Below, piece by piece: positions 15,066 to 63,937 of a stretch of DNA of 64,000 nt. Source of the stretch: Candidatus Microgenomates bacterium (lineage in GTDB: Bacteria > Patescibacteriota > Microgenomatia > UBA12405 > UBA6130); NCBI GenBank assembly GCA_015485895.1, contig WFSR01000012.1, positions 3,201-67,200 on the forward strand, in the 5' to 3' direction. Position 1 is the first letter of the stretch. The number at the start of each line of letters is the position of its first letter. Both the position numbers and the translations under genes were made by a program. Below the pieces are notes generated by a model. The model did no database searches and was not told where the DNA came from. It saw only the letters and a list, made by a program, of their open reading frames with translations.

Positions 15066-15149
15066 AGTGGGACCAATAACTTGAAAGTGAAAAGTTTGAG
15101 TGAAAAGTGAAAAAGAAGTCTAAGCTAAAAATGGAGCTAGGAACTAGGT

Positions 15150-15341
15150 CAAACAAAATCCTAAATCCTAATGACCCAAATCCTAAACAATAACCAAATT
15201 ACCAGATGATTAAATGACCAAAACAAAAGAAGGATGACAAAGATGTTTAAAACATTTGAATTTTGGTCATTTGGTATTGTTTAGAATTTAGAATTTAGGA
15301 TTTAGGTAATTAGGTATTGCCCCGACGAATGTCGGGGCAGA
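15150..15341. repeat. copy A of the long-palindrome intergenic repeat family (core only, plus GC hairpin)
   Basis: The left arm caaacaaaatcctaaatcctaatgacccaaatcctaaac...aaatgaccaaaacaaaag mirrors the right arm cttttggtcattt...tttaggatttagg. A GC hairpin gccccgacgaatgtcggggc lies at the right end. About 85-90% identical to copy B at 19851-20086 and copy C at 30049-30283. Confidence 0.8.
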
Positions 15342-15381
15342 GGTGATTTGATTATTTTTCTTTAGATGCTAAAATACAGGC

Positions 15382-18472: not shown

Positions 18473-19647
18473 AAAAAATTAAAGTATTAATAGCTAGCGA
18501 AACTTATCCACCAGATGTCAATGGCGCTGCAAGATTTACAGAAAATTTAGCTAAAGGCTTGGTATCAAGAGGACATAGCGTTGTGGTTATTGCTCCAGGA
18601 ACAAGATTTAGAGATGAGACAAGCAAGGAAAATATCAATCTTAAGGTATTTAGAATTGCATCAATTTCATTAAAACCTATACATCCCTATTTCAGAGCTG
18701 TTTTTCCAGAGGGTTTATATGGGAAAATTAAAAAAATTATAAAAGATTTTAATCCGGATATTATTCATATTCAGAATCATTTTCTTCTGGGGAGAACCTG
18801 CTTGAAAATAGCCAGAGAAAATGAAATACCTATAATAGGGACGAACCATTTTATGCCAGATAACTTATTAGAATATATACCCAAAATAGCCCATCCTTAC
18901 ATATCAAAGTATATGTGGAGTGATTTTATAAAAGTCTATAGTCAGCTAGATTATGTTACTGTTCCTTCTTATACCGCAGCAAGTATGCTAAAAAGATTAG
19001 GATTAAAAAATCAAGTCAAAGTGATTTCCAATGGGATTGATTTAAAGAAATTTAAGAATGTTAGGGTGAGTAATCGTGTCTACGTTAAATTCAAAATAAG
19101 GAAAGATTTATTTACTTTCATTTTTGTTGGCCGACTTGAGAAAGATAAAAACATTGATTTGGTCCTTGAAGCATCAAAACTGGCTATCAAAAAGAAGCCT
19201 TTTCAGGTTATTATTGTGGGCAAAGGGGCGGATGGGGAAAAACTGCAAAGATTATCAAGAGAATTAGGTTTGGGCAGAGAAATAATTTTTACCGGAGAAG
19301 TAAATAATAGCGAGTTAAATCAATTGCTTAGTTTAGCTCATGCATATATTGCCTCCGGTTCTGCCGAACTTCAGGGGATAGCAGTTATGGAAGCTATGGC
19401 TCATAAACTACCAATCTTAGCTCTTAACGCCGTTGCCTTACCTGAATTGGTTAAAGATGGAGTAAATGGCTTTCTCTTCAAGTTAGATAGCAATGATTTA
19501 GCTAAGAAAATGCTTAAGTTATTATCTCTTGACTCACAAAAATTGAAATTAATGGGCAAAAACAGTTTTGGAATTATTAAGCTACATAGTCAAGAAGAAA
19601 CATTAAAGAAGTTTGAAGATCTTTATAAAAAGGTAATAGGGAGCTAA
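18469..19647 (+). CDS. GT4-family glycosyltransferase
   Basis: EAMAHKLPILALNAVALPELVKDGVNGFLF is the GT4 EX7E region. The N-terminus has the typical GT4 Rossmann start IASETYPPDVNGAARF. Confidence 0.75.
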   Translation: MKKIKVLIASETYPPDVNGAARFTENLAKGLVSRGHSVVVIAPGTRFRDETSKENINLKVFRIASISLKPIHPYFRAVFPEGLYGKIKKIIKDFNPDIIHIQNHFLLGRTCLKIARENEIPIIGTNHFMPDNLLEYIPKIAHPYISKYMWSDFIKVYSQLDYVTVPSYTAASMLKRLGLKNQVKVISNGIDLKKFKNVRVSNRVYVKFKIRKDLFTFIFVGRLEKDKNIDLVLEASKLAIKKKPFQVIIVGKGADGEKLQRLSRELGLGREIIFTGEVNNSELNQLLSLAHAYIASGSAELQGIAVMEAMAHKLPILALNAVALPELVKDGVNGFLFKLDSNDLAKKMLKLLSLDSQKLKLMGKNSFGIIKLHSQEETLKKFEDLYKKVIGS

Positions 19648-19648
19648 C

Positions 19649-20086
19649 TGTTGAGGATCAAATAAACGTTCACACCTTCTGTTGAGTTATCAACACCTTG
19701 TCATCCCGCCCTTTCGTGAGAAAGAGCGGGATCTTCAGGGAGTGTGCCATCAATAATGGTGGTACGCCACCCAGCTGAAGATGAGCCCCCAAAGCTCCGA
19801 CGTGCGTCGGGGCGGGGCGGGCAAGTTCAACATGACGAGATATAAATTAAAAGCACCAAATCCCAAGCACCAATTTCCAAACAAATCCTAAATCCTAATG
19901 ACCCAAATCCTAAACCCCGACGTTCATCGGGGCAGGCAATAACCAAATTACCAAACGATTAAATGACCAAAACAAAAGAAAGATGATAAAGATGTTTTGA
20001 ACATTTGGATTTTGGTCATTTGAACATTATTTAGGATTTAGGATTTTGGTATTGTTTGTAATTTGGTGCTTGGAATTTGGAATTTG
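19649..20086. repeat. copy B of the composite repeat: 5' structured module (19649-19850) plus long imperfect palindrome (19851-20086)
   Basis: The 5' module shares gttgaggatcaaat.aac..tcac...tatcaacac...gtcatcc...ggatct.cag.ga.tgtgc.a.caataat.gtg.tacg.cac...gctgaagatg...atgacgaga.ataaa..aaagcaccaaa with copy C. Palindrome arms run aaagcaccaaat..caagcaccaa...aatcctaaatcctaatgacccaaatcctaaa || tttaggatttaggatt..ttggtgcttggaatttgg, centred near atgttttgaacat. Confidence 0.85.
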
Positions 20087-20097
20087 TTTTTTCTGGG

Positions 20098-20169
20098 TGC
20101 CGCCAGTGGGAATCGAACCCGCCTTTTCACCTTGAAAGGGTGATGTCCTAGCCGATAGACGATGGCGGC
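20098..20169 (-). tRNA. tRNA-Glu (anticodon TTC)
   Basis: Reverse complement gccgcca tc gtctatcggctaggac a tcacc cTTTCAAa ggtga ... gcgggttcgattcccac tggcggc a. Anticodon loop cuUUCaa. Glu-like D-arm. There is one A.C mismatch in the T-stem. Confidence 0.7.
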
Positions 20170-29618: not shown

Positions 29619-29876
29619 ATGCCACCACTTGATTTAAATGACGCTCTAGCGATGGGCGACAAAGAAAAAAATTTGGCCCGGGCTCGGCAATCACTGATCG
29701 AAGAGCTAGACGCGATTAATCTTTATGAAGAACGGATTCAGGCCACTCAAGATGAAGAATTGAAAAAAGTGCTAGCTCACAACCGAGATGAAGAAAAAGA
29801 ACACGCTGCAATGCTTATTGACTATTTACGCCGCCACGATCCTGTTTTTAAGCGGATGTTTACAGAGCACGATTAA
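29619..29876 (+). CDS. small ferritin-like (ExxH half-site) protein
   Basis: 85 aa, predicted helical. EELDAINLYEERI...DEEKEHAAMLIDYL contains an E...ExxH pattern like ferritin-like/rubrerythrin half sites. Last gene before repeat copy C. Confidence 0.3.
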   Translation: MPPLDLNDALAMGDKEKNLARARQSLIEELDAINLYEERIQATQDEELKKVLAHNRDEEKEHAAMLIDYLRRHDPVFKRMFTEHD

Positions 29877-29892
29877 TAAGAATAGCGGGTAA

Positions 29893-30283
29893 GTGTTGAG
29901 GATCAAATGAACACTCACGCCCTCTACCAGCAGCTATCAACACTTCGTCATCCTGAACTTGGTTCAGGATCTCCAGAGAATGTGCTACCAATAATAGTGA
30001 TACGACACTCGGCTGAAGATGCTGAGCTAAACTCAGTATGACGAGAATAAAAGCACCAAATTGCAAACAAATTCTAAATCCTAATGACCCAAATCCTAAA
30101 CAAATCCAAAATTCAAATGATCAAATGACCAAAACAAAAGAGAAAGAATAAAGAAAAAAAGAAAGAAGAAAAAGAAATGTTTTGAACATTTGGATTTTGG
30201 CCATTTGGTATTGTTTAGGATTTAGAATTTAGGTAATTAGGATTTATTTGGTTATTGGAATTTGGTGCTTGGAATTTAATTTG
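29893..30283. repeat. copy C of the composite repeat: 5' module (29893-30048) plus long palindrome (30049-30283)
   Basis: Same architecture as copy B, between the ferritin-like gene and mraY. The central region carries an A/G-rich expansion (agagaaagaataaagaaaaaaagaaagaagaaaaag). Confidence 0.85.
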
Positions 30284-30300
30284 GGGTGTTATACTAATTT

Positions 30301-58652: not shown

Positions 58653-58660
58653 AACTACGG

Positions 58661-58734
58661 TGTCCCCGGGGGGATTCGGACCCTCGACCTTCCCGTTAGA
58701 AGCGGGACGCTCTTTCCGACTGAGCTACGGGGAC
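58661..58734 (-). tRNA. tRNA-Arg (anticodon TCT)
   Basis: Reverse complement gtccccg ta gctcagtcggaaagagc g tcccg cTTCTAAc ggga aggtc gagggtccgaatccccc cggggac a. Anticodon loop cuUCUaa. Confidence 0.8.
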
Positions 58735-58739
58735 TTGGG

Positions 58740-58813
58740 GGTGGCTGGAGGGAATCGAACCCTCAACCCTCCGCTCCACAGGCGGATGCTCTGCCAATTG
58801 AGCTACAGCCACC
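58740..58813 (-). tRNA. tRNA-His (anticodon GTG)
   Basis: Reverse complement g gtggctg ta gctcaattggcagagc a tccgc cTGTGGAg cgga gg gttgagggttcgattccctc cagccac c. It has the extra 5' G(-1) and C73 characteristic of tRNA-His. Confidence 0.8.
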
Positions 58814-58817
58814 ATGG

Positions 58818-58890
58818 TCGGGGGTAGCAGACTCGAACTGCCAACCTCACGGTCCCAAACCGTGCGCGCTGCCAATTGCGCCAACCCCCG
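58818..58890 (-). tRNA. tRNA-Pro (anticodon TGG)
   Basis: Reverse complement cgggggt t ggcgcaattggcagcgc g cacgg tTTGGGAc cgtg aggtt ggcagttcgagtctgct acccccg a. Anticodon loop uuUGGga. Confidence 0.8.
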
Positions 58891-58891
58891 G

Positions 58892-58975
58892 TGCCGCGGG
58901 AGGGAATCGAACCCTCACGTCCCGAAGGACACGAGATTTTAAGTCTCGCCTGTCTACCAATTCCAGCACCGCGGC
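58892..58975 (-). tRNA. tRNA-Leu (anticodon TAA), type II with long variable arm
   Basis: Reverse complement gccgcgg tgctggaattggtagacag gcgaga cTTAAAAt ctcgt gtccttcgggac gtgagggttcgattccctc ccgcggc a. Anticodon loop cuUAAaa. Confidence 0.8.
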
Positions 58976-61994: not shown

Positions 61995-63289
<1,295 letters not shown>

Positions 63290-63291
63290 TG

Positions 63292-63365
63292 GCCAGGGTA
63301 GCCAAGGTGGTCACGGCACGGGTCTGAAAAACCTGGGATCTCGGTTCGACTCCGAGCCCTGGCAC
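63292..63365 (+). tRNA. tRNA-Phe (anticodon GAA)
   Basis: gccaggg ta gccaaggtggtcacggc a cgggt cTGAAAAa cctg ggatc tcggttcgactccga gccctggc a. Anticodon loop cuGAAaa. Confidence 0.7.
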
Positions 63366-63369
63366 CGAA

Positions 63370-63440
63370 GCGGGATTAGTTGAGTGGCTCAACACCACCC
63401 TTCCAAGGTGGAAACACGGGTTCAAATCCCGTATCCCGCT
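63370..63440 (+). tRNA. tRNA-Gly (anticodon TCC)
   Basis: gcgggat ta gttgagtggctcaac a ccacc cTTCCAAg gtgg aaac acgggttcaaatcccgt atcccgc t. Anticodon loop cuUCCaa. Confidence 0.8.
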
Positions 63441-63446
63441 CCTAAT

Positions 63447-63519
63447 GCGACGGTAGTTCAGCTGGTAGAACGTCTCGTTGCCAACGAGAAGGTCGGGGGT
63501 TCGAGTCCCCTCCGTCGCT
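63447..63519 (+). tRNA. tRNA-Gly (anticodon GCC)
   Basis: gcgacgg ta gttcagctggtagaac g tctcg tTGCCAAc gaga aggtc gggggttcgagtcccct ccgtcgc t. Anticodon loop uuGCCaa. Confidence 0.8.
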
Positions 63520-63523
63520 CCGA

Positions 63524-63594
63524 TCGGGGATCGTCTAACGGTAGGACAGTGGCCTTTGGAGCCACGAATCGTGGTTCGAATCCACGTCCCCGAA
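63524..63594 (+). tRNA. tRNA-Gln (anticodon TTG)
   Basis: tcgggga tc gtctaacggtaggac a gtggc cTTTGGAg ccac gaat cgtggttcgaatccacg tccccga a. Anticodon loop cuUUGga. Confidence 0.75.
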
Positions 63595-63602
63595 CCCAAT
63601 TG

Positions 63603-63675
63603 GCGCTCGTAGCTCAATTGGCAGAGCACCCGCCTCTTAAGCGGATGGTTGGGGGTTCGATTCCCTCCGGGCGCA
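63603..63675 (+). tRNA. tRNA-Lys (anticodon CTT)
   Basis: gcgctcg ta gctcaattggcagagc a cccgc cTCTTAAg cgga tggtt gggggttcgattccctc cgggcgc a. Anticodon loop cuCUUaa. Confidence 0.8.
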
Positions 63676-63937
63676 CAAAAATATCTAAGGGGAATTATGA
63701 AATTTATTGGCTAGCAGTATTTATCGCATCTATCGTGGTTTTTGTACATCTTCGATCACAATATATGTGGTAACACTTATAATAGAAATCGGTAACATCC
63801 GCAAGAAGTTATATATTTTTAGAACAATATCGTGTTATTATGCTTATCTCTTGGCTATTATGTTACTAATAATTCAACTTAAAAGTTACCTCTAATGGTG
63901 GTGAGATGCCTTGTTATTCGTTCTTGTTGTTTGTTTG

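Follow-up and report, generated by a model that had tools for sequence, protein, structure and literature searches.

The question raised by this locus is what kind of element lies between the murF and mraY genes of a Candidatus Shapirobacteria (CPR/Microgenomates) chromosome, where a repeat rich in hairpins follows a small gene. The preliminary description compared two copies of this repeat and suggested a small structured ncRNA or transposase-recognised hairpins as in IS200/IS605 ends. The stretch analysed (the window, 64,000 nt) is housekeeping chromosomal DNA with dnaE, rplS, the dcw cluster from mraZ to ftsZ, and tRNA clusters, according to Pfam scans and locus gene tables; its assignment to Shapirobacteria is based on the organisms named for MraY homologues. 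The murF-mraY insertion at 29619-30300 consists of an 85-aa EncFtn-like (encapsulated-ferritin-like) gene and the repeat. It lies inside the dcw cell-wall/division cluster, which is tightly conserved apart from these two, and was found only in this species and in a relative with 88% MraY identity. Relatives at 80% and about 62% MraY identity have murF directly next to mraY, with neither the EncFtn-like gene nor the element.

The repeat is a composite intergenic element with three copies in the window, designated A, B, and C. It is composed of a short leader, a 5' module of about 160-235 nt, a 3' module of about 220 nt, and nested GC mini-hairpins. Copies B (19645-20092) and C (29890-30275), both on the + strand, have a 5' module (19645-19842 and 29890-30047, respectively) followed by a 3' module (19843-20092 and 30048-30275), and these are the only two 5' modules in the window. 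The 3' module of copy C was recognized in repeat families D1 and D3, as inverted repeat I5, and by blastn. Copy A (15128-15345, + strand), also recognized among the repeat families, has the 3' module only and is located downstream of dnaE and upstream of rplS. A 5'-module remnant in its upstream flank was considered and rejected, as the similarity of this flank is not significant and stays within the range of shuffles. The 5' modules of B and C are true repeats, with about 71% identity over 141 nt (blastn, E = 3e-18), and identity among the 5' modules of B, C, and a further copy D is 70-80%.

The copies with a 5' module are closely attached to the genes in front of them. Copy C begins 14 nt past the stop codon of the EncFtn-like gene, and copy B opens with TAA, which is at the same time the stop codon of the glycosyltransferase gene before it; together with a truncated copy on contig L126 of the relative, they start 0-15 nt past the upstream stop codon. 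The orientation of the repeat is that of the upstream + strand genes, and all 5'-module copies open with TAAN-TGTTGAG. At its other end, the 3' module of copy B finishes in a T run just before the convergent tRNA-Glu gene (20096-20169, minus strand). Both 5' modules of known context, B and C, are directly 3' of lineage-specific genes. The gene 5' of copy B encodes a glycosyltransferase and belongs to a glycosyltransferase island that varies between strains. A homologue search revealed no close orthologue of it (best match 61% identical), so no orthologous B site could be reached through this gene. In its 3' end (19508-19600), 12 of 83 positions differ between the window and the contigs of two sister strains (L140 and L141). 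Over the next 2 kb, copy B included (100% identical in both), these contigs are identical to the window, and both end there. This pattern points to a recombination breakpoint, or the edge of a strain-variable island, about 50 nt upstream of repeat B.

The third full copy, D, was recovered from the minus strand of L136, a metagenome contig of 609 nt sampled at the same site. Because public assemblies contain spurious ORF calls over the module, a profile of the minus-frame ORF translations of B and C was searched against 1.84 billion representative proteins; its single match, P0247, is encoded on L136. Copy D has a leader, a 5' module with an insert, further nested GC palindromes, and a 3' module; it also carries the perfect palindrome GCCTGCCTGCGCAGGCAGGC. 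A leader AAATGGA..CTAGGAACTA is common to A (15128-15150), where it stands before the 3' module, and D (L136 minus strand about 570-553), where it stands before the 5' module; it looks like a further optional module of the repeat. The short leader GGAACTAGG of copy A resembles the 5' flank of D.

A covariance-model search of relatives, as proposed in the preliminary description, covered 240 kb of the lineage and its relatives and recovered only B (196.6 bits for its 5' module), C (168.7 bits), D, and the truncated L126 copy. No copies were found with this model in L128, L129, L138, or L139, and nhmmer on DNA of the lineage and relatives yielded none beyond the same four. The 14-mer pattern GTTGAGGATCAAAT gave only chance matches in public genome contigs (596 Gb), being too short, and GTTGAGGATCAAATNAACNNTCA gave two chance matches and no true copy in public metagenome contigs. 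Public viral contigs scanned by DNA pattern had no match, nor did the six-frame translation of concatenated B and C used as a protein query.

One + strand fold fits all full copies. It consists of a stem, P1, followed by a four-way junction of the helices P2, H1, H2, and H3 that leaves no junction base unpaired in the RNAalifold consensus of the B/C/D alignment, computed with the insert of D removed. The consensus is UGUUGA/UCAAYA for P1, CUUGUC/GACGAG for P2, AUCC...GGAU for H1, CUYCAG...CUGRAG with apical loop AAYAAU for H2, and AUGCUGAR/YUCAGYAU for H3. On the + strand of copy C, P1 pairs 29893-29899 with 29937-29943 (GTGTTGA/TCAACAC), P2 pairs 29944-29949 with 30040-30045, H1 pairs 29950-29958 with 29962-29970, H2 extends from 29971-29976 through 30013-30018 with an apical loop CAAUAAU, and H3 pairs 30019-30026 with 30032-30039. 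The corresponding + strand helices of copy B are P1 at 19649-19654 with 19690-19695 (TGTTGA/TCAACA), P2 at 19697-19702 with 19834-19839, H1 at 19703-19715 with 19720-19732 (GUGA loop), H2 at 19733-19738 through 19775-19780, and the H3 region at 19781-19833, which encloses a GC mini-hairpin at 19797-19812. Two single-stranded segments, GAGGAUCAAAUG and AAYAAU, are conserved among the copies.

The helices differ in length from copy to copy. In H1, four basal pairs are homologous, one of them with a true double change; beyond these, B has 7 bp with the GUGA loop, against 3 bp in the other two copies. The H3 stem encloses a loop of about 40 nt with a GC mini-hairpin in B and D, and this loop was lost in C. 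Copy D has an insert between P2 and H1 (L136 minus strand about 500-465), counted as 26 or 36 nt, with a perfect 10-nt direct repeat, GTCATCCTGA, on either side. Its appearance is that of a small insertion that duplicated its target, or of a duplication by slippage. In copy C, three C·A mismatches fall in H2, and the lowest energy belongs not to the shared architecture (-40.1 kcal/mol) but to a rod-like alternative (-47.1 kcal/mol).

All strings quoted in the preliminary description are present, namely gtcatcc-tgaac-ttg-gttca-ggatct (29947-29972) and ctgag-ctaaa-ctcag (30022-30036) in C, and gtcatcc-cgccctttc-gtga-gaaagagcg-ggatct (19700-19734) and gagc-ccccaaa-gctc (19783-19797) in B, and the outer stem, P1, is indeed kept in both. 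Its claim that the differing segments remain self-complementary holds above chance for H1 of B (38 of 5000 shuffles folded at least as well) and H3 of C (5 of 5000) and is marginal for H1 of C (342 of 5000). The second hairpin reported for B, gagc/gctc (269 of 5000), is not kept in D, and the homologous stem is the H3 consensus AUGCUGAR/YUCAGYAU. Nor do B and C compensate each other base by base: the large differences between them are length changes and nested palindromic inserts, with the basal H1 pair as the sole true double change among them. Compensatory changes stand at a few pairs, namely P2 position 3, basal H1, and one in H3. The hairpins exist and recur in all three copies, and at a few pairs the changes do compensate each other.

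Compared with shuffles, the + strand folds have z-scores of -6.2 in B and -4.0 in C, and the fold of D has one of -2.4. Standard pairs make up 92.9% of pair cells in B, C, and D. Shifting the 3' partners by 1-3 columns lowers this share to 32-54%, in a control biased towards structure because the structure was derived from these very sequences. Six pairs changed on both sides among the three copies. Among them are P2 position 3, with C-G, U·G, and U-A in C, B, and D, respectively; the basal H1 pair, C-G in B but U-A in the other two; an H3 pair, G-C in C against A-U in D; and one pair each in H2b and H2c. At least six two-sided changes were also obtained in 70 of 500 shuffles with these three copies. 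With a covariation term of +0.34 from RNAalifold, the signal in three sequences is suggestive and falls short of significance. Neither the two copies first compared nor the three now aligned thus give statistically supported covariation. What is supported of the earlier reading is a shared secondary structure that persists through sequence change in the three copies.

The modelled helices contain 15 G·U cells versus four A·C cells, and one U·G pair is conserved in B, C, and D. This favours the + strand, the sense strand of the upstream genes, as the folding strand, and the excess fits + strand folding as RNA or as single-stranded DNA. Whole-module energies are better on the + strand for B, about equal on both strands for C, and better on the - strand for D; as they disagree, energy does not settle the folding strand.

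The 3' module, AT-rich and about 220 nt long, is an imperfect inverted repeat in which a purine-rich spacer separates arms of about 90 nt. The arms are 78% complementary over 50 nt, extending to a hairpin of about 100 bp, and the whole element C folds with z = -7.2. Within 30051-30101, 19865-19915, and 15138-15188, one arm carries a 33-nt block with three AAATCCTAA units. The block shows no difference among A, B, and C and a single mismatch in D, and the complementary arm is less conserved. Judged from this asymmetry, the AAATCCTAA block might be a protein-binding site. GC mini-hairpins with consensus CCCCGACGnnnnTCGGGGCAGGC are nested at varying positions inside these AT-rich elements, at 15322-15337 in copy A, at 19797-19812 and 19917-19932 in the 5' and 3' modules of copy B, at 9909-9930 on L126, and at several places on L136. 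Within the window, their pattern CCGACGnnnnTCGGGG occurs in the elements only, at three sites (six strand matches) versus 0.07 expected in 64 kb. They resemble the mobile GC clusters of yeast mitochondrial DNA, or REP sequences.

Distribution among relatives is patchy. In L126, from the relative at 88% MraY identity, the 5' module of the orthologous C locus is reduced to its first 40 and last 25 nt or so, the whole hairpin core being deleted. Both lineages have undergone deletions at the C locus. The 3' module there (L126 9721-9917 versus 30048-30275) is inverted, with 77-85% identity in reverse and only short matches in the forward orientation; this could stem from a flip, through recombination of one arm with the other, or from an independent insertion. 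The ends of the L126 remnant still pair, as AUAUUGA/UCAAUAU, where a G-C pair of B has been replaced on both sides by A-U, which hints at selection on pairing beyond that expected of a decaying repeat. At the B locus of the 88% relative (L134), the tRNA-Glu gene is present and the element is absent. Copies were gained, lost, truncated, and flipped between close relatives. The 5' module is not a conserved RNA gene, since the core is deleted or the module absent at the same loci of relatives, and the small ncRNA proposed in the preliminary description is not supported in that form.

Known RNA families and coding functions were also considered. With Rfam 15 at gathering thresholds, only tRNAs were found in the whole window. 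There are 15 tRNA genes in total, four of them in a minus-strand cluster at 58659-58975, six in a plus-strand cluster at 63215-63676, and the others dispersed. When B, C, and D were scanned permissively (E up to 10), Rfam 15 gave only weak chance matches far below threshold; the families covered included hammerhead, twister-sister, and hairpin ribozymes, HEARO, 6S, and SRP. The hammerhead core is CUGANGA ... GAAA ... UH around three helices. CUGAAGA is present in B and C, but D has CUGGAGA, and no GAAA follows the next helix, so a hammerhead was rejected. Other ribozymes were rejected as well, with no conserved core and no Rfam match.

The module carries no coding signal. Public assemblies annotate a 44-aa ORF over module C (29907-30041, + strand) and a 125-aa ORF on the minus strand of module D (L136 209-586), both of which are spurious ORFs over non-coding repeat DNA. 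The 44-aa ORF of C is broken by stops in B, and the ten substitutions in the gap-free H2 block are distributed 4/3/3 by codon position, with no periodicity. The conserved stretch GAGGAUCAAAUG (29899-29912 and 19655-19668) looks like a ribosome-binding site and start codon, GAGG-N6-AUG, with AUG in C and D, GUG in L126, and AUA in B. A conserved small ORF is unlikely, as B lacks the start codon and the peptides that would follow are unrelated, and a leader peptide was rejected on the same grounds.

With moderate confidence, we consider the 5' module to be an optional part of a modular interspersed repeat of one Shapirobacteria species group, probably functioning as an RNA structure at 3' ends. 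The element would be transcribed as the 3' end of the upstream mRNA, where the 5' module would fold into P1 and the fully paired four-way junction, with the long hairpin of the 3' module behind them. The folded element could then block exonucleases or terminate transcription. A 3'-end RNA structure with these roles has been proposed for REP/BIME, BOX, ERIC, and bcr1. Its spread would be by recombination or by a trans-acting transposase. No terminal inverted repeats of the composite, target-site duplication, or enzyme were found, and it is therefore the patchy distribution that suggests mobility.

That the 5' module is a free-standing family of small structured RNA genes, acting in trans or in cis with its fold under selection, seems unlikely. 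The AT-rich hairpin would then be linked to it incidentally, or would serve as its terminator. One architecture in three copies only 70-80% identical, with two-sided changes and conserved wobbles, would suit such a gene, as would the conservation of the unpaired GAGGAUCAAAUG and AAYAAU and the compensatory change by which the truncated L126 copy keeps its end-to-end pairing. The same relative, however, has lost the core at the orthologous locus, and the module is absent from other relatives. Moreover, no promoter above background was found for the 5' module, which starts at most 15 nt from the upstream stop codon, covariation is not significant, and copy C combines three C·A mismatches with a more stable alternative fold.

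It is quite unlikely that the module is a neutral, decaying palindromic repeat, with hairpins produced by template switching or slippage and nested insertions and with compensation due to chance and shared ancestry. Under neutrality, a double-stranded palindrome would not be expected to show G·U over A·C at 15:4, and double changes in P2, H1, H2, and H3 argue in the same direction, as does the identity of B across sister strains against the 12 of 83 differences just upstream. Several features nevertheless agree with neutral decay. The differences between B and C are indels and inserts, and H1 of copy C (CUGAAC/GUUCAG) resembles the base of H2 and H3, as a local duplication would yield. The core of the 5' module is itself a large palindrome, matching itself in reverse orientation with E = 5e-6. 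Deletions at the C locus in both lineages and the lack of significant covariation are likewise compatible with it.

More doubtful is the view that the hairpins are recognition sites in single-stranded DNA for a transposase or recombinase, the module being one end of a mobile unit such as an IS200/IS605-type end (PATE-like derivative), a REP/RAYT-like system, or an attC-like cassette site. A G·U (G·T) excess on one strand only would be explained, and so would the patchy distribution with orientation flips between relatives, the position of both known-context 5' modules at the 3' edge of lineage-specific genes, and the likeness of the nested GC palindromes to REP sequences. An enzyme is missing, though: TnpA (Y1 HUH) and TnpB were found neither among the window proteins nor in the gene tables of overlapping loci, and transposase, reverse transcriptase, integrase, and RAYT genes are absent from the 64-kb window and the adjoining and flanking loci. 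No right-end hairpin of the IS200/IS605 type and no conserved flanking tetranucleotide could be defined from the three or four copies, no pair of hairpins marking two ends or cleavage tetranucleotide was identified, and a consistent direct repeat as target-site duplication was found around none of A, B, C, and D, whose neighbour genes differ in relatives. In the data covered here, no defining feature of the IS200/IS605 ends suggested in the preliminary description was observed. As to REP/BIME, within the window the GC palindromes are confined to the elements, and no RAYT gene accompanies them. Integron attC sites have the consensus RYYYAAC ... GTTRRRY with R''/L''...L'/R' sites, and were rejected because the order GTTGA ... 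TCAAC found here is the reverse of that consensus and no integrase is encoded in the window.

Since the copies of known context lie at the 3' edge of the EncFtn-like gene and of the glycosyltransferase island, the four-way junction might also represent a new class of folded single-strand (RNA/DNA) site that marks the places where gene cassettes insert in CPR bacteria, and perhaps mediates their insertion. It would then act like attC with no integron integrase involved, a proposal that is highly improbable.

Among described repeats, the element is most like the structured interspersed repeats bcr1, BOX, REP/BIME, and MITEs. The bcr1 and related repeats of the Bacillus cereus group are strain-variable intergenic elements of about 150-200 nt with a predicted RNA fold and some compensatory changes. 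The likeness is one of general features, namely size, intergenic site, strain-variable presence, predicted fold, and probable co-transcription. The two are not known to be related in sequence, and unlike bcr1 the present element is modular, attached to a 220-nt AT-rich hairpin, with no target-site duplication seen, a small-genome CPR host, and only three or four known copies. It shares with BOX of Streptococcus pneumoniae (boxA-boxB-boxC) and with REP/BIME and ERIC of enterobacteria, in their general features, the optional units, intergenic or 3'-end sites, stable stem-loops in transcripts, and proposed roles in mRNA stability or termination, and differs from them in sequences, sizes, and host. 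We know of no counterpart in these families to the four-way junction module or to the nested GC mini-hairpins.

Like MITEs and other interspersed repeats, the element has dispersed copies whose presence varies between close relatives. Its 3' module, one long AT-rich inverted repeat that is multicopy and variable in presence and orientation, is in itself MITE-like and has the terminal inverted repeats, which the 5'+3' composite does not have. In contrast to MITEs, no target-site duplication or parent insertion sequence was found, and the 5' module stands outside the inverted repeat, with no matching module at the other end. With IS200/IS605 ends and attC sites, the element has in common imperfect palindromes immediately 3' of genes and strand-specific pairing signals; it differs in having no cognate enzyme gene, mismatching motifs and order, and no defined junctions.

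At present the family is small, restricted to one lineage, and of putative role. A full-text search of the literature found no description of interspersed repeats or structured RNAs of this sort in CPR bacteria, and in these very small genomes interspersed repeats are apparently undescribed. Since the repeat lies inside the dcw cluster, it could affect operon expression. It also has consequences for public data. It breaks metagenome assemblies, as copy D is alone on its 609-nt contig and a contig of another strain ends about 190 nt past dnaE, at the start point of copy A, and it causes spurious gene calls, such as those of 44 and 125 aa.
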